A DNA stretch of 64,000 bases, taken from Escherichia phage tootiki. Under the pieces are notes generated by a model. That model saw nothing but the letters and a program-made list of their open reading frames with translations. It was not told the DNA's origin and searched no databases. Where the stretch lies: sequence record MN850647.1. One strand, given 5' to 3'. Of this stretch, positions 30-30,767 are shown piece after piece (the stretch's first letter is position 1; every line of letters starts with the position of its first letter). Made by a program: the position numbers and the translations under genes.

Positions 30-3057
<3,028 letters not shown>

Positions 3058-3058
<1 letters not shown>

Positions 3059-3342
3059 TACATTTTTCCTGCTCTTCTAAGTTCGTTGTAAGCAATTTCC
3101 TCTTTATACGACCTCTGAATTTCAAGAAATTGTCTCAATGATAATAAATCAGAGAATGTCATAGCAAAGAGTTGGTCAAGTGTTTCTTTACACCCTTCCA
3201 TACCATAAATAGCAAGCACAAATTTCATCTCGTCTGCTTCTTCATAGGTTGCCTCTACAGCAGCATCAGTTAGTGGTGTCTGTAGAGTGTTACCCATGTT
3301 TACTGAGAAGTTAGGCTTTTGAAAATGCTTGCTTCGAAAAAA
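3058..3342 (-). CDS. tail assembly chaperone frameshift extension (GT-like C-terminal part)
   Basis: ORF in -1 frame relative to 3300-3698, open from slippery site through to 3058; ends at tape-measure start. Confidence 0.5.
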
Positions 3343-3698
3343 CTTCCGAAGTTTGCCTCCAGCGCAAATGCTAAGTAATCAATGAACTCACCATAGTTTG
3401 CTTGGAAGTACGTATCAATATTAAGTGGGAAGTCATCAACAGTTGCCCCTTGAAATAACAGGGTTGCCATCTCTTCAAGGTTAATTTCTTCAATTCTGTC
3501 AAAACAAGCTTCAACAAGCTCTTTAAATGGAACCATTGGAGCTTCTTTCTTATCTTTATCCGTAAGACTTGACAGCATCTGTGCAAATGTTGGAACAACA
3601 ATTTTACCCAACTTCATAGACATCTTAATACCATCTCTTGCCCCAAGCAGGATGATATTTACTTTCTTACCATTAATTACTCTAGATTCTGTTTTCAT
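3300..3698 (-). CDS. tail assembly chaperone (G-like)
   Basis: 132 aa ORF immediately upstream of tape measure; contains T_TTT_TTC heptamer near its 3' end. Confidence 0.6.
   Translation of the reverse strand: MKTESRVINGKKVNIILLGARDGIKMSMKLGKIVVPTFAQMLSSLTDKDKKEAPMVPFKELVEACFDRIEEINLEEMATLLFQGATVDDFPLNIDTYFQANYGEFIDYLAFALEANFGSFFEASIFKSLTSQ
3336..3342 (-). other. -1 programmed ribosomal frameshift slippery heptamer T_TTT_TTC
   Basis: minus-strand sequence AGT TTT TTC in zero frame (codons S-F-F); -1 frame stays open into ORF 3058-3297. Confidence 0.55.
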
Positions 3699-3728
3699 TG
3701 TGATTCCTTAATACTTTTAAAAGAAACA

Positions 3729-3757
3729 AAAAAGGGGAAGACCTTTTAAAGTCTCCC
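3729..3757 (-). terminator. intrinsic terminator after tail tube gene
   Basis: minus strand hairpin GGGGGAGAC-N8-GTCTTCCCC followed by TTTTTT. Confidence 0.5.
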
Positions 3758-3771
3758 CCTTATAGGATTTA

Positions 3772-4218
3772 TTAAACACTTGACGCTGGAATTGTAGAAG
3801 TGTAGTCTAACTTCTCACAACCAAAAATCCAAGTTTTAGAGTTCTGGTCACGACCAAGTTCAATCTGTGGTAACTCCTGCAACCAAGCGTTAATACCAGT
3901 TGCCAGAACAGAGCCTGATGGGTCGTAGATTACGAAGTTAGAAGAGATATCTTCTTCAAGTTCCATATTGTCTTGTTTAGCTTGAATTGCAGAAAGCATC
4001 TGGTTAGAGAGAGAAGTCTGCATTAACTCAATCTCAATAGTACCTGTCTTGTCTGCATTTCTTGTCAGAGCAACTTGACCACCTGCACCAACAACTGGTG
4101 TCACGAGTGGTGATGTTCTCTGTAGACGCAAGAATGAGTCTGGGGCAAAGCCTTCAATGGCAATACCATTCCAGCTACATACAACGTCTTTAGGGGAATA
4201 TTGCTGATACATAGCCAT
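3772..4218 (-). CDS. tail tube protein
   Basis: 148 aa ORF between 450 aa sheath-like gene and chaperone/tape measure; order typical of contractile tails. Confidence 0.5.
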   Translation of the reverse strand: MAMYQQYSPKDVVCSWNGIAIEGFAPDSFLRLQRTSPLVTPVVGAGGQVALTRNADKTGTIEIELMQTSLSNQMLSAIQAKQDNMELEEDISSNFVIYDPSGSVLATGINAWLQELPQIELGRDQNSKTWIFGCEKLDYTSTIPASSV

Positions 4219-4233
4219 TCCAATTTACCTCTA

Positions 4234-5586
4234 TTATTCGTAAGCCACTGTACCTTTCAAGTCAACATCCAAGATAGCCCCTGCTAAGATACCTGCGAAG
4301 GTAACATCTTTCAGGATACGTGCTTTCTTGTCTGCTAAAGCAACTTGAGAGGCTTTAGGAACATTAACTGTGTAAGATGACAGGAAGTTTCTGTTGACTG
4401 CTCTTTGCAGAGAGGTTTCAATGACTTGACGAATACGGGTAATACCAGTATCATCATAAGTAATCTTACCACCCTTCTGGTTAATTAGCAAGTCTCTCAG
4501 AGAAGTTTTCAGGTCTGATTCTAACCAGTCAACACCACGGACGATATCAATCCATTCCCCACCAGAAGTAATCCCTCTACGAACCACTGGAACACCACCA
4601 TCAAGGTCAATAAAGTTACAGTGACGTACATCTAAAGCAGACTTCTGAATACTTGTCAGAGGTCTCTGATTAGATGGTTGTAGAGAAGCTGCTACGCCAG
4701 TTAGCTGAGCATTACCCCAAGCAATTGAGCCTGCATCATATGGAGCACCATAAGCAATGTATGCCATCTCTGGATAATCTTCTGCTGCTGCGTGATGCCA
4801 CAAGCAAACTGTACGAGTGTACATATTCTTAGCAAGCTGTGCTGGAACATCATTTGCACTGGCTAATTCTGTACCTTGTAGGGCTGTTACATCGGAGTTA
4901 GCCGTAAAGAAGATTTTCTTACGAGCCTGAATCTCAGAAGCCATTGCTAAGACAAACTGTTGAGTTCTGTCTTCTGCTGCAATGAAATACCAGTCAGTAG
5001 AGTAAGCTTCGATAGCTGCCAGAGCAGTTGCTGCTGTATCAGCAGTTGTACTTGCAATATATACAGTCTGTGCTGTGGTTGTTACTTTCACAAAGTCATT
5101 ATCACCAGCTTTGGTAATAATCATTGTGGCAGAGCCATTGCTACCAGTTACATTCACAGAAACCTTATCTTTGATTGTTGGGTCAGCTTCAATCTGTGTT
5201 TTAAACTGTTGCAACACTACCTCAGCAGTGTCTGAATCTTGTGCTGTGTACTGGTATGGTTGAGAAATTCCACCGCCAACAGCTACAGTAATTGAGTAGT
5301 CTGTACTTTCGGTAACGGCATCAGGAATTGATACAGTGTACTGCATAGCGCGTCTACCGATATAAAGCTGAGTTACTTTAGGAGTCTGACTCCAAAGTTG
5401 TTTAGCAGCCTTATATGCAGCAGTATTCTCATCGAAATCTTCAGCAACTTCAGTTAAGGAAGTGTAACCACGCACTCTTTCTTCAAAGTTATCTGTTGAA
5501 GCTAAGAATAGTGGCAAACCAAAACCTTCTCTTGTAGTTCCTGCGGTGTTCAATGTAATATCTACATTAACAATTGGATTCCACAT
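4234..5586 (-). CDS. tail sheath protein
   Basis: 450 aa ORF directly upstream of tube-like gene; size and order as in P2/Mu-type contractile tails. Confidence 0.5.
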   Translation of the reverse strand: MWNPIVNVDITLNTAGTTREGFGLPLFLASTDNFEERVRGYTSLTEVAEDFDENTAAYKAAKQLWSQTPKVTQLYIGRRAMQYTVSIPDAVTESTDYSITVAVGGGISQPYQYTAQDSDTAEVVLQQFKTQIEADPTIKDKVSVNVTGSNGSATMIITKAGDNDFVKVTTTAQTVYIASTTADTAATALAAIEAYSTDWYFIAAEDRTQQFVLAMASEIQARKKIFFTANSDVTALQGTELASANDVPAQLAKNMYTRTVCLWHHAAAEDYPEMAYIAYGAPYDAGSIAWGNAQLTGVAASLQPSNQRPLTSIQKSALDVRHCNFIDLDGGVPVVRRGITSGGEWIDIVRGVDWLESDLKTSLRDLLINQKGGKITYDDTGITRIRQVIETSLQRAVNRNFLSSYTVNVPKASQVALADKKARILKDVTFAGILAGAILDVDLKGTVAYE

Positions 5587-6186
5587 TTATTTTACCCCTT
5601 TGGAGTCTACATCTAGATGGATAGTATATTCTGGTGGCTCTTGTCCTTCTTCATAAACCAACTCACCATCAACAATGACACGCTCAATAATACTTCCACG
5701 TTCATCCTTCAGGACTGAGTTTTTTACAAGAGTTACAACAAGAGGTGCAGAATTTTCGAAATCTGTATTGAGATAAGTATAGTCATTCGGGATAGCTCCA
5801 GTGTCTAGTACTGTAGCTCCTGTTTCTTCAAGGATTAAATCTCTGACTGAACTCATCTCTAATCGTTGTTTAAGCTCAAGCATAATACTGTGAGCACCTT
5901 TACCATTCACCGTAATTAATACTGGAATCTGAAAAGCAATTCTGTAGCAAACTACATCATCCTCAACAAACTTATCAAGAACCCAACCATAAGGTGTTGC
6001 AGCATCTTGACAATATACGGTAATAAATGGCTGGTCAGGTTTTAAACCTTTGTCATTTGAGTTATCAGAAGGGTAAGCTCTAATTACATTTGGTCTATTA
6101 TTTTTATCACGAGCTAGTTTGTGACCAATAACACCCACTAAGGTTCTAACTAGACCTTTTTCAAGTTCTGCTGTTTCTAACTGCAT
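5587..6186 (-). CDS. virion protein (tail completion or terminator candidate)
   Basis: 199 aa ORF between neck genes and sheath. Confidence 0.35.
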   Translation of the reverse strand: MQLETAELEKGLVRTLVGVIGHKLARDKNNRPNVIRAYPSDNSNDKGLKPDQPFITVYCQDAATPYGWVLDKFVEDDVVCYRIAFQIPVLITVNGKGAHSIMLELKQRLEMSSVRDLILEETGATVLDTGAIPNDYTYLNTDFENSAPLVVTLVKNSVLKDERGSIIERVIVDGELVYEEGQEPPEYTIHLDVDSKGVK

Positions 6187-14759: not shown

Positions 14760-14835
14760 TGGAGAATCCGAAGGGACTCGAACCCTTATAAACCTGTTCT
14801 GCAGACAGGTACATATCCATTTCTGTCACGGATTC
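14760..14835 (-). tRNA. tRNA-Cys (anticodon GCA)
   Basis: hand-folded cloverleaf: acceptor GAATCCG/CGGATTC, anticodon loop CTGCAGA, T-arm AAGGG-TTCGAGT-CCCTT, CCA encoded. Confidence 0.7.
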
Positions 14836-14839
14836 AAAT

Positions 14840-14932
14840 TGGAGGAAGATACCAGACTTGAACTGGTACACCGATTTCTCAGCTACTGGCAGTTTAGCAA
14901 ACTGCTCCCTTACCTTTTAGGGTTAATCTTCC
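14840..14932 (-). tRNA. tRNA-Ser (anticodon GCT), class II
   Basis: acceptor GGAAGAT/ATCTTCC, anticodon loop TTGCTAA, long variable arm, T-arm ACCAG-TTCAAGT-CTGGT. Confidence 0.65.
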
Positions 14933-14933
14933 A

Positions 14934-15668
14934 TTATTTCTGTAATGCGTTCTTCATTTCTGGTGTTGCAATAGTGTCAATCACACCAGTTTTACAAGCA
15001 TCGTCAAACCAGTCTGGTAAGATACCTGCTAAGAACCCATTGATATTCGTTTTAAGGTACTCTGCAATAAGGGCAGCTTCTTCTTCAATCATCTGCACAA
15101 CTTCATCTGCATAAGCTGTAATCTTTGAAATACCTTCATTAATTTTACTGACAGCTTGGTTAGCTAAATCAGAAACAGTGTCAAGACCCTTATCAATAGC
15201 GTCTTGTAAGTCACTTAACACACCGTTAACACTGTCTAGTGTGCTGTTAATCATGTCAATAGCTTGCTGACCATACTCTGTAGCAACACCCATAATACCA
15301 CTAAATGGTGTACAACCAACTTGTTCTCCTGCTGCACCCATAACATTGGAGTATCCCTTTGCTACCTGCATACGTGATGAAAACTCATCAATAGACTTTT
15401 GACCGTAGTCTGTTAGGGTCTTAGTAGTCGCTGTAGTGCTTGTAAGGCTTGTTGTAAAGCTGTTTAGAAGGACTGTTGTAAGTCCAGCAGCAACAAGTTT
15501 CTCCTTCATTGTAGGGTCTGTTACAGAGCTAATAGAGCTTACAAGTGATGTAGAGGCAGCTACGGTTCCACCGAGAACTGCTGCACCAGTAATAAGTGGG
15601 TTAGAAAACCCTTTACCGGTTTTTAAGAGATTAAAAATCTCCTTACCTTGTTCTGTCATCTCTTTCAT
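14934..15668 (-). CDS. hypothetical Ala/Ser/Thr-rich protein
   Basis: ORF track start at 15731 overlaps tRNA-Phe; start moved to internal ATG at 15668 (MKEMTEQ). Confidence 0.4.
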   Translation of the reverse strand: MKEMTEQGKEIFNLLKTGKGFSNPLITGAAVLGGTVAASTSLVSSISSVTDPTMKEKLVAAGLTTVLLNSFTTSLTSTTATTKTLTDYGQKSIDEFSSRMQVAKGYSNVMGAAGEQVGCTPFSGIMGVATEYGQQAIDMINSTLDSVNGVLSDLQDAIDKGLDTVSDLANQAVSKINEGISKITAYADEVVQMIEEEAALIAEYLKTNINGFLAGILPDWFDDACKTGVIDTIATPEMKNALQK

Positions 15669-15686
15669 TAAGCACCTTTGAAATTG

Positions 15687-15761
15687 GTAGTCCAGTGGGA
15701 TTTGAACCCTCTTCTCATGTTTTTCAGACACGCGCTTTAACCATATAAGCTACTTGGACTA
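15687..15761 (-). tRNA. tRNA-Phe (anticodon GAA)
   Basis: acceptor TAGTCCA/TGGACTA, anticodon stem CGTGT/ACATG loop CTGAAAA, T-loop TTCAAAT; D-arm weak. Confidence 0.55.
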
Positions 15762-15765
15762 TAAA

Positions 15766-15842
15766 TTGGGGTGACCTACGGGATTTGAACCCGTATAGAC
15801 CATGTTCACAGCATGGGTCATTACCATTTATGATAAGGCCAC
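15766..15842 (-). tRNA. tRNA-His (anticodon GTG)
   Basis: acceptor GTGGCCT/AGGTCAC, D-stem TCAT/ATGA, anticodon loop CTGTGAA, discriminator C, CCA encoded. Confidence 0.7.
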
Positions 15843-15873
15843 ATTTAAGGACTCTCGTAAGAACCCTTAGAAG

Positions 15874-15949
15874 TGGCAGCGGCATAAGGATTTGAACCTT
15901 AATAGGACAGCTTCAGAGACTGCTGCATTGCCAGTTATGCTATACCGCT
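15874..15949 (-). tRNA. tRNA-Gln (anticodon CTG)
   Basis: acceptor AGCGGTA/TGCCGCT, D-stem GCAT/ATGC, anticodon loop CTCTGAA, discriminator G. Confidence 0.65.
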
Positions 15950-15954
15950 AAAAT

Positions 15955-16033
15955 TGGTACTCCATATCGGATTCGAACCGATACATAACACAGATTTTAA
16001 GTCTGGCCTCTCTGCCAATTGGAGTAATGGAGC
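15955..16033 (-). tRNA. tRNA with Leu-type anticodon TAA, class-I length
   Basis: acceptor GCTCCAT/ATGGAGT, T-arm ATCGG-TTCGAAT-CCGAT, anticodon loop CTTAAAA, discriminator A; no long variable arm. Confidence 0.45.
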
Positions 16034-16035
16034 AT

Positions 16036-16111
16036 TGGCGGGGGATGTTGGAATTGAACCAACTTCTTCGATTTCAAAGACCGAGGTTTTAACCTTGTAA
16101 ACTAATCCCCT
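16036..16111 (-). tRNA. tRNA-Gln (anticodon TTG)
   Basis: acceptor with A1-C72 mismatch, D-stem GTTT/AAAC, anticodon stem TCGGT/ATCGA loop CTTTGAA, discriminator G. Confidence 0.6.
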
Positions 16112-16119
16112 TTAAATCT

Positions 16120-16677
16120 TTACTTTCTCAGTGGATGAATAAAGAATGCCAACATAACTCTTTCCCTTGAGAATGCTCTTTCTTCTGGGACAACACTTTT
16201 TAGTTTCCATCCAATATAAATTCTCCAGTAAAACTGTTTACCAAAGACTTTAATTGATGGGATAAAAGCGAATAACCCCCAAGCATTACTGTTCCACATT
16301 AGGAGATAGCCAGTCTGATTATCTTCAGGGTCAGAACTTACGTTGATATTACCTTTCCACTTAGTAACATCTTTTACATCTCTTCCTAATACATGGTAAG
16401 AGAAGTTATAAGCTTTGTTTCTCCAGAGCCATCCAACTCTCTGCATGTAGACACCCAGTTTACCAATCTTTCTAATCTTAGCCCATCTTTTGACGTGGCC
16501 TTCGTCACCATCAATCGGGTTGTCATAGGTCTCCATCCATCTGAATCCAAAAGGCAGATGTCCCTTCTTCTCACTGTAGAATGGAACTACGAAAGGTGCT
16601 AAGATGACTGCTAGGGTTGCTGCAAATGGTTCTAGTAAAGCTAGGAAAATCCATGAAGCATACTTCAAATATCTCAT
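16120..16677 (-). CDS. hypothetical membrane protein
   Basis: 185 aa ORF with hydrophobic N-terminus, embedded in tRNA array. Confidence 0.45.
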   Translation of the reverse strand: MRYLKYASWIFLALLEPFAATLAVILAPFVVPFYSEKKGHLPFGFRWMETYDNPIDGDEGHVKRWAKIRKIGKLGVYMQRVGWLWRNKAYNFSYHVLGRDVKDVTKWKGNINVSSDPEDNQTGYLLMWNSNAWGLFAFIPSIKVFGKQFYWRIYIGWKLKSVVPEERAFSRERVMLAFFIHPLRK

Positions 16678-16696
16678 CTAAATAGCCTCTTAAAAT

Positions 16697-16774
16697 TGGT
16701 GTTCCAAGACGGATTCGAACCGTCACTAATACAAGGTTTGAGCTTGCATCCTCTGCCAATTGGGATACTGGAAC
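16697..16774 (-). tRNA. tRNA with Leu-type anticodon CAA, class-I length
   Basis: acceptor GTTCCAG/TTGGAAC, T-arm GACGG-TTCGAAT-CCGTC, anticodon stem GCAAG/CTTGT loop CTCAAAC, discriminator A. Confidence 0.45.
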
Positions 16775-16775
16775 A

Positions 16776-16850
16776 TGGTACTCACTAAAGGACTTGAACC
16801 TTTTTCTTCATCTTGTAAGGGTGGTGTTTTACCATATAAACTAAGCGAGT
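16776..16850 (-). tRNA. tRNA-like, anticodon position reads TAC (Val) but anticodon stem poorly paired
   Basis: good acceptor, D-arm GTTT/AAAC and T-arm AAAGG-TTCAAGT-CCTTT; anticodon stem only 3 of 5 pairs. Confidence 0.4.
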
Positions 16851-16945
16851 GTGAAAGAGGTCTTAAGTTGTGCCGCTAACTCAACTCCGTGGAATTTGTT
16901 ACGGTCTTCAGTTGACACCAGCGGTCTTTCACTTGACCTCTGAAT

Positions 16946-17022
16946 TGGTGCTGCTCACAGGACTCGAACCTGCATTTCCATCCTTACAAGGGATGTGTAA
17001 TAGCCAATTATACGAAAGCAGC
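16946..17022 (-). tRNA. tRNA-Thr (anticodon TGT)
   Basis: anticodon stem CATCC/GGATG loop CTTGTAA, T-arm GCAGG-TTCGAGT-CCTGT, discriminator A. Confidence 0.7.
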
Positions 17023-17029
17023 ATTAATT

Positions 17030-17104
17030 TGGAGCATCCAGAGGGAATCGAACCCTCAACCTCAGTTTGGAAGACTGTAATTTTCCCGTTTAAACTATGG
17101 ATGC
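17030..17104 (-). tRNA. tRNA-Gly (anticodon TCC)
   Basis: acceptor GCATCCA/TGGATGC, anticodon loop CTTCCAA, T-arm GAGGG-TTCGATT-CCCTC, discriminator T. Confidence 0.65.
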
Positions 17105-17110
17105 ACTAAT

Positions 17111-17186
17111 TGGTGGAGAAGCAGGGAATTGAACCCTGTACTTAAGTTTGCAAAACTTATGTTTTAACCATGTAAACTACATCCCC
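17111..17186 (-). tRNA. tRNA-Ala (anticodon TGC)
   Basis: D-stem GTTT/AAAC, anticodon stem TAAGT/ACTTA loop TTTGCAA, T-arm CAGGG-TTCAATT-CCCTG, discriminator A. Confidence 0.7.
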
Positions 17187-17192
17187 AATATC

Positions 17193-17268
17193 TGGTACAG
17201 GTGGAGGGAATTGAACCCATCGTCTTACTGATTAAGAGTCAGCCGCATAACCATTTTGCTACACCTGC
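17193..17268 (-). tRNA. tRNA-Lys (anticodon CTT)
   Basis: acceptor GCAGGTG/CACCTGT, anticodon loop CTCTTAA; T-stem ATGGG/CCCTC imperfect, same as tRNA-Lys(TTT). Confidence 0.55.
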
Positions 17269-17275
17269 ATTAATT

Positions 17276-17353
17276 TGGTAGGAGACAAGGGATTCGAACC
17301 CTCAAACATCTCGTTCTAAGCGAGATAGGTTTACCAATTACCGTCAATCTCCC
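17276..17353 (-). tRNA. tRNA with Leu-type anticodon TAG, class-I length
   Basis: anticodon stem ATCTCG/CGAGAT perfect, loop CTTAGAA, T-arm GAGGG-TTCGAAT-CCCTT, discriminator A; no long variable arm. Confidence 0.5.
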
Positions 17354-17432
17354 ATTAAATCTTTTTAGAGAACTTCTAAGAACCTAAGCAACAAGGTTCC
17401 ACAACAAGCTGTAATAACCTTAGAAGCCCTCT

Positions 17433-17452
17433 AAAAAGACCTAAAAAGGTCT
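17433..17452 (-). terminator. intrinsic terminator-like hairpin inside tRNA array
   Basis: minus strand AGACC-TTTTTA-GGTCT followed by TTTT. Confidence 0.4.
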
Positions 17453-17611
17453 TTGCATAGTCTTGTTTAATCCGGTGACTATAACCTTTGGAGAGCTTGA
17501 TATTATCTCTTCTCCGTGACACCTACTAGGTGCTTTACTGTGCATGTACGACAATACACTAGGGATACCAAAGCAACATCCGAATGAAGCTTGGCTTTAA
17601 ATCTTATTAGG

Positions 17612-17699
17612 CGGTAAGTAAAGGAGTCGAACCCTCACCGTATCTCTACAGTGGCAACTGTTTTCAAGACAGTTTGGCTACCATTAGCCGCTACCTACC
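17612..17699 (-). tRNA. tRNA-Ser (anticodon TGA), class II
   Basis: acceptor GGTAGGT/ACTTACC, anticodon stem ACTGT/ACAGT loop CTTGAAA, 20 nt variable arm, discriminator G. Confidence 0.7.
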
Positions 17700-17717
17700 C
17701 CTAATAAGACTTTGGCA

Positions 17718-17795
17718 TGGGACGGAGGAGTTGAACCACTTTGAAACGGTTTTGGAGGCCGTTGCTCATGCCTTAGAGTCTTAACATCGTCCCAC
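17718..17795 (-). tRNA. tRNA-like; possible Trp (anticodon CCA) with enlarged D-loop
   Basis: acceptor GTGGGAC/GTCCCAT plus G73 and encoded CCA, T-loop TTCAACT; core does not fold canonically. Confidence 0.35.
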
Positions 17796-17932
17796 ACTAT
17801 AATTCGAAGCTTACCGTATTTTCACAACACTGTAAAGCCCCTTCTCAGATTATTTACATGTTCTGGAAAACATGAGATACAGACCACCTCCTTACAGGAA
17901 GACCCGCTTAGGTCGTCTAAGTAATCTGCTAA

Positions 17933-18280
17933 CTAATACTTTGCATGTCTTACCCTATGGCAATTTGAACATAGCAAAACACATTTGTCAAGTTCATCTT
18001 TTAGTTCTTGAGAGAACTTAAGGCTTTTCCTATGACCAATGTTAAAATCTTTATCTGAAGGATTCAAATGATGGAAGTCATACACTGCTGGATGATATTT
18101 CTTACCACAATCATGACAAACCCCACCTTTGTACTCAATAGCTGAGAGTTTAAGTGCTCTTTGTCTTTCTATGGTTTGCTCATTAACACACTTTTTACAG
18201 TATGAATGAGTTCTCCTACCATCTTTCATGTAGAAATCATTTTCATCCTTGCTAAGTTTGCACCTAATACAAGTTTTCAT
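17933..18280 (-). CDS. HNH endonuclease
   Basis: Cys pairs CIRCK and CKKC, HH-LNPSD-N motif, CSNCH; start moved to MKTCIRC because track start overlaps a tRNA. Confidence 0.7.
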   Translation of the reverse strand: MKTCIRCKLSKDENDFYMKDGRRTHSYCKKCVNEQTIERQRALKLSAIEYKGGVCHDCGKKYHPAVYDFHHLNPSDKDFNIGHRKSLKFSQELKDELDKCVLLCSNCHRVRHAKY

Positions 18281-18294
18281 GATTTCTCCAAAAT

Positions 18295-18376
18295 TGGTCG
18301 AGGCGGCAGGACTCGAACCCGCATACTCCACTTACTCGGTTAACGTCTGTTTAGAAGACAGATGAGATACGCCCCG
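18295..18376 (-). tRNA. tRNA-like; possible Arg (anticodon TCT) with atypical geometry
   Basis: acceptor CGGGGCG/CGCCTCG, T-arm GCGGG-TTCGAGT-CCTGC, CCA encoded; perfect hairpin TCTGT-CTTCTAA-ACAGA but no room for a D-arm. Confidence 0.35.
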
Positions 18377-18624
18377 TAATTATCTTTAAAGACTCTCTTA
18401 GAAAGCCCTTAAAGATGCCCACCTTATTAATCATACCGTGGGCTAGTACGCCAAATTCTTTGATGAGGGATTGGAAGACCTCACTGGTGTTTAGCCTATC
18501 AAGCTACTGCCAGAAAAACATTGTCGTTTGCATTTATTTTAAATTTGCAAAATAGACGCTACGCAACGAAAACTAAGGTTACTATAAAGTAGTCACATCT
18601 CAGTGTCAACAACTTTATTGAAAG

Positions 18625-18699
18625 TGGTTGTAGGTGAGGGTATCGAACCCTCTTCTAACGGTTATCAGCCGTTTGCATTACCATTTATGCTAACCCACA
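18625..18699 (-). tRNA. tRNA-Ile (anticodon GAT)
   Basis: D-stem GCAT/ATGC, anticodon stem AACGG/CCGTT loop CTGATAA, T-arm GAGGG-TTCGATA-CCCTC, discriminator A. Confidence 0.7.
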
Positions 18700-18701
18700 A
18701 T

Positions 18702-18778
18702 TGGAGGTTCAGGTGGGATTCAAACCCACATTCATAGGGCTTATGAAACCCTTGCATTACCTTATCTGCGACTGAACC
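18702..18778 (-). tRNA. tRNA-Met (anticodon CAT)
   Basis: acceptor GGTTCAG/CTGAACC, anticodon stem AAGGG/GCCCT loop TTCATAA, T-arm GTGGG-TTTGAAT-CCCAC. Confidence 0.65.
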
Positions 18779-18783
18779 ATTTT

Positions 18784-18859
18784 TGGTAGAAGTGGAGGGA
18801 TTCGAACCCATCGCCTGTCAGATTAAAAGTCTGCCGCATCACCATTCTGCTACACTTCC
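18784..18859 (-). tRNA. tRNA-Lys (anticodon TTT)
   Basis: acceptor GGAAGTG/CACTTCT, anticodon loop CTTTTAA, discriminator A; T-stem ATGGG/CCCTC imperfect. Confidence 0.55.
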
Positions 18860-19010
18860 ATTAAATCATCTTTGCAGTAACCTACGCAGACCTTGCTAAA
18901 GGGTCTGTAGAGTCATTTCATATTAAGCTAATCTAGAATCATACTAAGGAAATTCATCGGCACTCATGGGACGACATAATTAGCCACATAAGCTACTGCA
19001 AAGATAATTA

Positions 19011-19141
19011 CCAGACCGTTGTTTATCATCTTAAGTGCTACCATTACACCAACTCGACCTCTGCCGAGTGAAGGAATCGAACCTTCGCCTTTTCTTTACC
19101 GAGAAATAGATTGTTTAAGTTTTGCTGTAAACGGTCTTCTG
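19011..19141 (-). ncRNA. structured spacer module a: terminal inverted repeat enclosing a tRNA-like T-arm and D-arm-like segment
   Basis: minus strand CAGAAGACCG...CGGTCTGG ends pair; internal GAAGG-TTCGATT-CCTTC and AGTTGGTGTAATGGTAGCAC; no anticodon arm. Confidence 0.4.
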
Positions 19142-19154
19142 TAAATTTGTTGAG

Positions 19155-19230
19155 CCAGACCAAGTTTTAAATTTTTCAAAATTGAATTGGCTTGAAAATA
19201 TCATACATTCTTGCTGTATTTGGTCTTCTG
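19155..19230 (-). repeat. spacer module b (CCAGACCA...TGGTCTTCTG inverted-repeat unit)
   Basis: same terminal inverted repeat as module a. Confidence 0.4.
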
Positions 19231-19291
19231 CTCCTTTAAAGAATACTCGTAAGAACTCTTTAAGGGAGGGGCTAAATAGCCCTCTCAAAAT

Positions 19292-19368
19292 TGGCGGCTA
19301 CGATGAGACTTGAACTCAAATCATCTCCCGTGACAGGGGAGTATTTTCTCCAGTTAAACTACATAGCC
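19292..19368 (-). tRNA. tRNA-Asp (anticodon GTC)
   Basis: anticodon stem CTCCC/GGGAG loop CTGTCAC, acceptor GGCTATG/CGTAGCC, discriminator G. Confidence 0.7.
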
Positions 19369-19373
19369 TTTAT

Positions 19374-19461
19374 TGGTGTGCCGTGTAGGAGTCGAACCTA
19401 CCGAGTCTCAATGACAAGGGATTTACAGTCCCCACCGCTACCATCTACGGGATAACGACAC
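19374..19461 (-). tRNA. tRNA-Tyr (anticodon GTA), class II
   Basis: T-arm GTAGG-TTCGACT-CCTAC, anticodon loop CTGTAAA, about 15 nt variable arm, discriminator A. Confidence 0.7.
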
Positions 19462-19469
19462 ATTTAATT

Positions 19470-19546
19470 TGGCGGTTAGTCAGGGATTCGAACCCTGTGC
19501 CATTCGCTTAACAGGCGACCGCACATACCTTATGTGCTTCCTAACC
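19470..19546 (-). tRNA. tRNA-Asn (anticodon GTT)
   Basis: D-stem GCAC/GTGC, anticodon loop CTGTTAA, T-arm CAGGG-TTCGAAT-CCCTG, discriminator G. Confidence 0.65.
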
Positions 19547-19557
19547 TTAATACATTG

Positions 19558-19618
19558 CCAGACCGTGTTTTTTCTTTTATCCGCAAAAAAGTATTTTGTT
19601 GCTGAATACGGTCTTCTG
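19558..19618 (-). repeat. spacer module c (CCAGACCG...CGGTCTTCTG inverted-repeat unit)
   Basis: same terminal inverted repeat; internal GCAA/TTGC hairpin. Confidence 0.4.
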
Positions 19619-19624
19619 CAAAAT

Positions 19625-19701
19625 TGGAGGCGGGTGCAGGAGTCGAACCTGCCGATACCATGCTAATGAGACATGTGAGACGCCCTTTCTCTATACCCGC
19701 A
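19625..19701 (-). tRNA. tRNA-Met (anticodon CAT), second copy with 1-72 mismatch
   Basis: T-arm GCAGG-TTCGACT-CCTGC, D-stem GAGA/TCTC, anticodon stem CATGT/GCATG loop CTCATTA; T1-C72 unpaired. Confidence 0.55.
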
Positions 19702-19712
19702 ATTCTCAATGA

Positions 19713-19784
19713 CCAGACCAAATATCTTCTTTGTCCGATTTCGTGTCAGATGAGTAGATTAAGTTTGCTGTAATTGGTCTTCTG
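19713..19784 (-). repeat. spacer module d (CCAGACCA...TGGTCTTCTG inverted-repeat unit)
   Basis: same terminal inverted repeat as modules a-c. Confidence 0.4.
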
Positions 19785-19791
19785 TCAAAAC

Positions 19792-19869
19792 TGGCGTTCC
19801 AGAAGGGATTTGAACCCTCAGATATCCACTTTGAAAGAGTGGTGACTTTACCATTTTGTCTACTGGAAC
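19792..19869 (-). tRNA. tRNA-Glu (anticodon TTC)
   Basis: acceptor GTTCCAG/CTGGAAC, anticodon stem CCACT/AGTGG loop CTTTCAA, discriminator G. Confidence 0.7.
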
Positions 19870-19876
19870 ATTAATT

Positions 19877-19953
19877 TGGTCTCTGTTGGAGGACTTGAAC
19901 CTCCGGCCTTACCGCCCCAAACGGAATGCTCTACCAAGCTGAGCTAAACAGAG
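19877..19953 (-). tRNA. tRNA-Pro (anticodon TGG)
   Basis: acceptor CTCTGTT/AACAGAG, D-stem GCTC/GAGC, anticodon loop TTTGGGG, T-arm GGAGG-TTCAAGT-CCTCC. Confidence 0.65.
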
Positions 19954-29232: not shown

Positions 29233-30348
29233 TTATAAAATTTTATCGGTTGTCCCAACCTCTGGGTCACCATCATATGTGAATAAAATATCTACCCTTC
29301 TTAACAACCTTCTTAATCTTACTCTCTATATAGTTATATAGTACTATATAGTATCTTAGTAACTATCTAGTGGTCTTAATAGCCCTCTGTATAGCCCTTC
29401 TAAATAGCCTTCTAAACACTCTTCTAACAAGCCCTCTTAACCACCTATACAATCACCTTAACCATCCCTCTACACCCTCTTAGAAGCTCCTATACACCTC
29501 TTAATCTCTAGGTTAGCTATGGCACTCTCTATAGGTGTTCACTAGGTAATACTAAGCCTCTATATAGACTGTTTTAACAAACTTAACAGGAATATCTTTA
29601 CAGACCTTACCTCACAAGGTCTAACACGGTACTAACAAGGTATCTTGTAAGCCTGTTTCTACCTGTATTTTTAAAAGACTGTATAGGTAATTATTCAGAA
29701 TTTTAAAATTTTTATAAAATAGGACTATCAAGTCATTTTTTAGGGTCTTTGAAGGAACTGAAAAATATCTGTCTAGGATGTATATCTGCTTGGTAGCCCT
29801 TAACAGCTCCCTTACAAGTACTTTGCAAAATTTTAAAATATCCTTAACAATCTCTTAACAGTTCTCACATCTTCTTAACAACTCTTCAAAGGTCTTAACA
29901 GATTCTTAACAGAACTAACAAGGCTGTAACAGTTTCTTAACAGTTGATACATAATCTTTACAGAGGCTTAACAGATGACTAACAAGAGCTAACAAGTTAA
30001 TTTTAAAGAGTTATTTTGTTAAGATTATTAACAAGTTTCTAACAAGTCTTTAATCTTTTTAACAAGCTATTAACATGGTCACTATCTCTTTCTTATCGTT
30101 CCCTTTCCTTTCTTAGTGATTCTTTAAACATACCTCTTAAAAGCTCTCTATAGCTCTTTATAAGCTCTTTTAAGTCTCTTCCTAGTAGTTACACCCCAAC
30201 TGTACAGATAGCTCTCTATAGGGCTTTACAGGAGCTTTTAAGGCTATGTCAAAGACTCTTACAAGGCTTTTACGTGGTCTTAACAGAGATTTAACAAGGG
30301 GCTAACAAGTTGCTAACAAGTGTCTTAAAAGCATAACTATGTAGGGAT

Positions 30349-30380
30349 TGTTAAGAAATTGTTAAGAAAATGTTAAGGGG
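30349..30380. repeat. three inverted-orientation iterons (TTGTTAAG)
   Basis: TTGTTAAGAAATTGTTAAGAAAATGTTAAGGG; reverse complement of the upstream TAACA iteron. Confidence 0.6.
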
Positions 30381-30393
30381 GCTAGTATTTACG

Positions 30394-30443
30394 TAACTTT
30401 TAAGCTACTTCAAAATAACTTTTAAGCTACTTCAAAATAACTT
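30394..30443. repeat. 23 bp perfect tandem direct repeat (2 copies)
   Basis: AACTTTTAAGCTACTTCAAAATA repeated back to back. Confidence 0.7.
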
Positions 30444-30767
30444 TATAGCCCCCTTCTTAGATATTCACAAGATAACTAATGAGATGATAAAGCTTACACC
30501 CTTATAAGATTCTTTTAAGGCTCTGGGAAGCTTTATAAAGGGCTTTTAATGGTGAGGTAATGCAATCCCTTAAGTTAGGTTAATAAGGTCGTTATAGGGC
30601 TTTATAGAGCGTTTAAATGGTTGCCCTTCCCTTTCGGGTTATGGGCTTATATTTAAGTTGATTTGATAAGGGGCTATAGAGTAAGCTATAGAGTTATTGT
30701 TTTTTAAGGTCTGATAAGATTCTGGAAAGGAAAGGGAAAGGGTTGTATAAGGGATTTGATAAGACGT

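Follow-up and report, generated by a model that had tools for sequence, protein, structure and literature searches.

Between the tail tube gene and the tape-measure gene of a Felix O1-like phage, two small open reading frames (ORFs) follow each other on the minus strand, and the question is whether they encode two separate proteins or one protein together with its frameshifted extension. The window analysed here is the whole stretch of 64,000 nucleotides from Escherichia phage tootiki (MN850647.1). It belongs to a Felix O1-like myovirus of the Felixounavirus group and is 98–100% identical to Shigella phage JK55. Positions 2000–6000 match 297 phage records by megablast, and the best of these matches, with 97–98% identity along all 4 kb, belong to JK55, Escherichia phages momo and Alf5, and Felixounavirus Salmonella phages; in the 681 nt around the proposed slip site the identity to JK55 is 100%. 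A first-pass annotation, made from the letters alone, had interpreted the two ORFs as a tail assembly chaperone pair connected by a −1 programmed frameshift. The comparison of sequences presented below argues strongly that a −1 ribosomal frameshift at the heptamer T_TTT_TTC, positions 3342–3336 of the minus strand, is real. Unless stated otherwise, the genes and elements of this locus are all on the minus strand.

In the direction of transcription the order of genes is sheath, tube, chaperone G, T ORF and tape measure. The sheath gene (5586–4234) is identified by phrog_205 and DUF3383, and the tail tube gene (4218–3772) by Pfam KPP10_Orf10 (3.2e-7) and phrog_280; the tube gene in the record of Citrobacter phage Michonne is labelled as a virion structural protein, 'rv5 Orf52 like'. 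Gene G (3698–3300), the 0-frame translation, encodes the short chaperone (TAC-N) of 132 aa. It matches the Pfam family PF21822, Phage_TAC_15, with an E value of 1.9e-19 and 70.9 bits where the cutoff is 22, the match extending over residues 9–124 of G and positions 1–124 of the 127 in the profile, and it matches the tail assembly chaperones of phrog_1613 at 7e-49. By a PF21822 score above the curated threshold, the product of this upstream ORF is a tail assembly chaperone. The T ORF (3297–3058, 79 aa) matches phrog_4963, also a tail assembly chaperone, at 2.8e-55. The tape-measure gene (3058–827, 743 aa) follows, with Pfam TMP_3 at 1.1e-16 and phrog_4036 at 1523 bits. Both small ORFs sit between the tube gene and the tape-measure gene, as expected of a G/GT-type pair, and the assignment of the region to a tail module, which the first-pass annotation had supported by the gene arrangement, is borne out. 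A sequence search of the PDB with the chaperone profile gave no significant relative, the best full-length match being 5ir0_A, 'ORF19', at E=0.15.

The interval between the tube gene and G contains an intrinsic terminator, a hairpin with a T-run at 3761–3732, whose 13-bp stem of −19.7 kcal/mol is followed by TTTTTTGTTT. Erwinia phage phiEa21-4 and Yersinia phage P778 likewise have a hairpin and T-run here, and the record of Michonne annotates a terminator at this site. The element at 3732–3761 is probably an attenuator that holds the chaperone and tape-measure transcripts below the levels of those for sheath and tube.

The C-terminus of the G ORF reads ...NFGSFFEASIFKSLTSQ followed by the stop, i.e. 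...EANFGSFFEASIFKSLTSQ followed by the stop. The slippery heptamer at 3342–3336 is formed by AGT TTT TTC, which encodes Ser119-Phe120-Phe121 in the phase X_XXY_YYZ, correct base for base as first described. No second in-frame XXXYYYZ heptamer is present anywhere in G. The heptamer had been placed in the ORF upstream of the tape measure; the ORF and its position stand, but it is the second ORF upstream and does not directly adjoin the tape-measure gene. The site lies 40 nt ahead of the G stop, within the overlap of the two frames. Frame −1 opens after the TGA at 3381–3379, and frames 0 and −1 are both open from 3378 to 3300. The −1 frame then continues without a stop from 3378 through the heptamer to the TAA at 3060–3058, while the +1 frame is shut after 6 codons. 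[quoted passage not shown]

After a slip, the T segment would run in the −1 frame from 3336 to 3058, beginning with CGA at 3336–3334 and comprising 92 codons before the TAA. The predicted products are G, of 132 aa, and GT, of 213 aa, the latter consisting of residues 1–121 of G and 92 residues of T. The last A of the T-frame TAA doubles as the first base of the tape-measure ATG at 3058–3056, giving TAATG at 3060–3056; the −1 frame is open through the ORF at 3297–3058 and adjoins the tape-measure start, just as had been proposed. An overlap of two ORFs in different frames that contains a slip sequence is what G/GT-type genes show, and it is present here. The TAATG overlap is identical in the examined loci of Felixounavirus, Mooglevirus, Suspvirus and Yersinia phage P778, and in Kolesnikvirus, Pectobacterium phage Wc4 and the Vequintavirinae the T frame stops 4–66 nt short of the tape-measure start.

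A second, weaker candidate slip site was also noticed, the tetramer T_TTC in ATT_TTC at 3324–3321, which follows the heptamer after 12 nt (18 nt from start to start) and lies in a nucleotide-conserved island, GCAAGCATTTTCAAAA, shared with Kolesnikvirus. A −1 shift there would change five residues of GT. This tetramer was rejected as the slip site, being weaker and lost in distant lineages.

Conservation was followed in two sets of relatives. Twelve GenBank loci represent Felixounavirus, Mooglevirus, Suspvirus, Kolesnikvirus, Yersinia phage P778, Pectobacterium phage Wc4 and three Vequintavirinae, with chaperone identities of about 41% in Kolesnikvirus, 52% in P778, 43% in Wc4 and 26–28% in the Vequintavirinae. 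All 12 have TTTTTTC aligned and in phase, with a −1 frame that stays open up to the tape-measure start or to within 66 nt of it and a +1 frame that is shut within 6–52 codons. Another 80 loci, with 44 distinct contexts, were collected from IMG/VR by a scan with the chaperone alignment. Every one of them has NNT TTT TTY, including contigs of 60–65% GC, and a −1 frame open for 69–116 codons. The peptide pattern used for recruiting the IMG/VR loci required ...[SC]FF, and the conservation of the FF dipeptide is therefore partly a matter of ascertainment; the choice of codons alone provides a free test.

For this test the contexts were clustered into 27 lineages sharing less than 60% chaperone identity. 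The Ser/Cys codon ends in T and the first Phe codon is TTT in 27 of 27. From the codon usage of each lineage, itself a small sample, the joint probability of these Ser/Phe codon choices is about 1e-29, and a conservative bound with a probability of 0.5 for each choice is still below 1e-16. The second Phe codon is TTC and not TTT in 20 of the 27 lineages. At the nucleotide level, only 3353–3313 still aligns with the Erwinia phages by blastn, at 92.7%, and the sliding nucleotide identity peaks at the slip site in each of four distant comparisons, reaching 0.93 with phiEa21-4 against 0.55 overall. In the −1 frame, FF is followed in most cases by Arg and then by a basic linker and a conserved core of T, and the 0-frame tails of G diverge freely in sequence and length among relatives. 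The comparison of frames that had been suggested as a check on the frameshift was in its favor: heptamer, phase and open −1 frame are kept from Felixounavirus through the Vequintavirinae to uncultivated GC-rich phages.

A canonical signal for −1 programmed frameshifting combines a phased heptamer with a stable 3′ structure 5–9 nt downstream. The phased heptamer, AG[T TTT TTC], is present. The class H_HH.U_UU.Y, which includes U_UU.U_UU.C, proved the most efficient in E. coli, and U_UU.U_UU.C shifts at more than 0.1% even without stimulators (PMC4066793). A search for a downstream hairpin or pseudoknot had been suggested as a check; folding of the window and its relatives into pseudoknot-free structures found no stable hairpin at 5–9 nt. 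For the first 50 nt beyond the heptamer the predicted fold has −3.2 kcal/mol (z=+0.94), which is not significant. A fold of 106 nt gives z=−1.9, with 8 of 200 shuffles equally stable, and its sole local hairpin, about 38 nt downstream, is too far away and not conserved. RNAalifold on 10 relatives predicts 0 pairs. Similarly, the 50-nt folds of nine relatives show nothing significant, those of the GC-rich ones being strong but no better than shuffled sequences. A search of the whole window against Rfam at gathering thresholds returned tRNAs only and no known frameshift element. The efficiency of the shift may be low, since no 3′ stimulatory structure was found.

On the 5′ side, an SD-like GGAGG at 3360–3356 precedes the heptamer by 13 nt and is a putative stimulator. 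With a predicted anti-SD duplex of −9.3 kcal/mol, it ranks among the strongest 1.4% of all positions in G. In the review of Atkins et al. (PMC5009743), an internal SD is described as stimulating −1 shifting when the spacing is 9–14 nt, and the 13-nt spacer behind this anti-SD-complementary GGAGG falls within the range of the dnaX and IS types. Of 53 contexts, 44 have GAGG or GGAGG at the corresponding site. Among the 16 low-GC lineages, 13 use GAG rather than GAA for the Glu encoded there, where a frequency of 0.29 is found for GAG elsewhere in these genes (P=2.3e-5). The element is absent from the Kolesnikvirus loci, Yersinia phage P778, L042, CR8 and A5-4; of the three Vequintavirinae loci, two are without it. 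Because it is missing from Kolesnikvirus, P778 and these two Vequintavirinae, it is not essential. No start codon stands at initiation distance after GGAGG in the window sequence, and GGAGG is therefore not an internal ribosome-binding site. From its position and its apparent codon-level maintenance in most lineages, GGAGG may be a dispensable enhancer of the slip, a role for which we consider the chances about even.

The GGAGG is also part of a weak hairpin at 3362–3346 (CTGGAG-GCAAA-CTTCGG, −6.3 kcal/mol) located directly 5′ of the T-run, which was flagged by the terminator scan. As a conserved element this hairpin was rejected: inspection by eye indicates that its pairing is lost where the motif reads N-Y-G, and it would be melted inside the ribosome during decoding of the heptamer. 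It is probably incidental.

A broader proposal, which we hold tentatively and at somewhat less than even confidence, is that the PF21822 family carries a fixed cassette, GAGG or GGAGG exactly 13 nt 5′ of U_UUU_UUY without a 3′ structure, encoded in L-E-[AV]-N-[FY]-G-S-F-F and kept from Felix O1-like to rV5-like and GC-rich uncultivated phages. The peptide motif would then be conserved partly for the RNA signal, the 5′ pairing with rRNA would set the G:GT ratio, and the phage-encoded tRNA-Phe(GAA) and tRNA-Ser(GCU) might modulate it.

ARAGORN finds 24 tRNA genes clustered at 14760–19953 on the minus strand, including tRNA-Phe(GAA) at 15685–15760 and tRNA-Ser(GCU) at 14840–14932, the decoders of AGT-TTT-TTC. 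Rfam reports a further tRNA that ARAGORN does not call, at 18298–18376 on the minus strand, with 33.4 bits where the gathering threshold is 29. Inspected by eye, this sequence forms a sound acceptor stem and T arm, and its anticodon loop reads CTTCTAA (UCU, Arg); a normal D arm is missing and a long extra region is present. Possibly it represents a degenerate or atypical tRNA. Elsewhere in the window, 29326–30444 is AT-rich and repeat-rich, with short tandem or iteron-like arrays of periods 11, 12, 18, 21, 22 and 31 nt and a perfect 22-nt repeat in 2.3 copies at 30394–30444. This region may act as an origin or in regulation.

Translation of T as an independent 79-aa protein (3297–3058), with no frameshift at all, would be an alternative way to express the second ORF. 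Ribosomes terminating on G would reinitiate at TAA-AC-ATG, and the heptamer would be mere Ser-Phe-Phe codons. The geometry is permissive, the G stop and the T ATG being 2 nt apart; most public records have two separate CDSs, and in Mooglevirus GGAAGG precedes the downstream ATG. Nevertheless, the ATG of the public records at 3297–3295 is probably not a genuine start. In the window it is not preceded by an SD: the most favorable anti-SD pairing has +0.7 kcal/mol, compared with −5.1 (tape measure), −6.1 (G), −7.1 (tube) and −7.9 kcal/mol (sheath) at the neighbouring genes. An equivalent ATG or Met is missing in phiEa21-4, Wc4, P778 and the Vequintavirinae: the T stretch is unannotated in the first two, is given a TTG start in P778, and in the Vequintavirinae the annotated ORFs start far downstream of the G stop. 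In all lineages the open stretch of the −1 frame reaches back past any start as far as the heptamer, and the synonymous Ser and Phe choices are fixed against the local codon bias. Reinitiation could be an extra route beside the shift in Felixounavirus, but it cannot account for the family-wide pattern, and as the explanation of this locus it is improbable.

The same fusion protein would also result from slippage of RNA polymerase, which, by adding one U on the T6 run, would produce a minority mRNA encoding GT. The conserved NNT and TTT choices also maximise the length of the T-run and therefore do not by themselves discriminate against this mechanism, and the weak hairpin before the run resembles a pause signal. 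However, the run is 6 here, compared with about 9 A or T for efficient bacterial slippage (PMC5009743), and the TTC kept by 20 of 27 lineages is not the run-lengthening TTT; for these two reasons slippage in transcription is unlikely, and we rank it marginally below even reinitiation. The preference for TTC fits the ribosomal hierarchy U_UU.C > U_UU.U (PMC4066793). The hairpin is, by eye, not kept where the motif reads N-Y-G. An anti-SD element at the ribosomal −1 spacing appears to be maintained by codon choice in most lineages. As for a fortuitous heptamer beside two unrelated small ORFs, one in-frame XXXYYYZ is expected in about 10% of random 26-codon overlaps (an estimate, from 1/256 per codon). 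The conservation of the heptamer in all 27 lineages makes it more than chance. With its phase and the open −1 frame likewise conserved, and with nucleotide identity peaking at the slip site, coincidence is effectively refuted.

In the ribosomal frameshift that we infer, most ribosomes would read G (3698–3300) to its TAA and produce the 132-aa chaperone. A minority would slip back by one base on U_UUU_UUC while tRNA-Phe occupies both the P site (UUU) and the A site (UUC), resume at the CGA at 3336 and follow the −1 frame to the TAA at 3060–3058, yielding the 213-aa GT. By analogy with gpG and gpGT of phage lambda, G and GT would both coat the tape measure protein, whose gene follows directly, the tube protein would be brought in by the rare T domain, and the G:GT ratio would depend on how often the slip occurs. 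An intrinsically shifty heptamer is probably what the slip rests on. In the phage of the window it is probably helped by pairing of the 3′ end of 16S rRNA with the GGAGG 13 nt upstream, and downstream RNA structure is apparently uninvolved.

Two well-studied systems resemble the locus in different respects. As in the window, the two ORFs for gpG and gpGT of lambda overlap and are flanked by the genes for the major tail (tube) protein and the tape measure. The slip heptamer of lambda is G_GGA_AAG, which differs from U_UUU_UUC in the window. In lambda the short form is abundant and the long form rare, and neither is found in virions (Levin et al. 1993; Xu, Hendrix and Duda 2004, 2013, 2014, via PMC5009743). 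In the window the chaperone belongs to the family PF21822, and the virus is a contractile-tailed myovirus. With E. coli dnaX the window shares an internal SD 5′ of an X_XXY_YYZ heptamer at a stimulatory spacing (9–14 nt; 13 nt in the window). In dnaX the heptamer is A_AAA_AAG, a 3′ stem-loop is needed, approximately 50% of ribosomes shift, and the new frame ends one codon later (PMC5009743). Unlike dnaX, the window has no 3′ structure that folding could find, and its −1 frame runs for 92 codons.

Some of the public records already contain the join. Salmonella phage Mushroom (KP143762), identical to the window across the slip site, has a two-piece CDS joined at the heptamer, with a span of 641 nt and a product of 213 aa. 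In Citrobacter phage Michonne (NC_028247) the feature 'ribosomal slippage (47149)' maps inside TTTTTTC, and the CDS is joined there; both joins come from CPT records. The frameshift is stated in the genome announcements of Citrobacter phages Moogle and Mijalis (PMC4319497, PMC5543628). Between these four phages and the window there is no substantive difference, the gene, the TTTTTTC and the join being the same. In the Alf5 RefSeq record, GEC_vB_B1 and momo (our loci L001–L003) and in JK55, G and T are left unjoined as independent CDSs. In phiEa21-4 and Wc4 the T region is an unannotated gap of about 235 nt, which indicates a systematic annotation gap in the group. In the literature on Felix O1-like phages we found no fusion peptide, reporter assay or mutant; the genome papers predict the shift only. 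The reading of the locus as a −1 programmed frameshift of the G/GT type, with which the annotation of the window began, is upheld by agreement among the Pfam chaperone, the gene position, the conservation and the joins in Mushroom and Michonne.

A −1 frameshift between TAC-N and TAC-NC was described in 2025 for the Vandenendeviridae, with Pseudomonas phage Adele, and for 231 Andersonviridae phages (PMC12846349), and the window falls within the Andersonviridae as that paper names them. In the present analysis the site is resolved as a phased T_TTT_TTY, and the sample reaches the Vequintavirinae and GC-rich uncultivated phages. The text of the paper contains neither 'hairpin' nor 'pseudoknot' and has 'Shine' once, and its passages on the frameshift do not treat a 5′ SD-like element; such an element is therefore the only increment made here. 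The chaperone frameshift of Felix O1-like phages is real, very well conserved and already known.

For annotation, the two chaperone CDSs should be replaced by G plus a joined GT, the join being at 3336. Most Felixounavirus records, including those of the nearest relatives of the window, call G and T separately. The G/GT strategy has been textbook knowledge since 1993–2004. With the conservation across the family already published in 2025, the scientific gain is small. The modest addition is evidence for an internal SD maintained at the codon level, at a dnaX-like spacing, together with a 3′ side in which folding found no structure. If this is confirmed, the family would be a clean natural example of a −1 shift stimulated from the 5′ side only.
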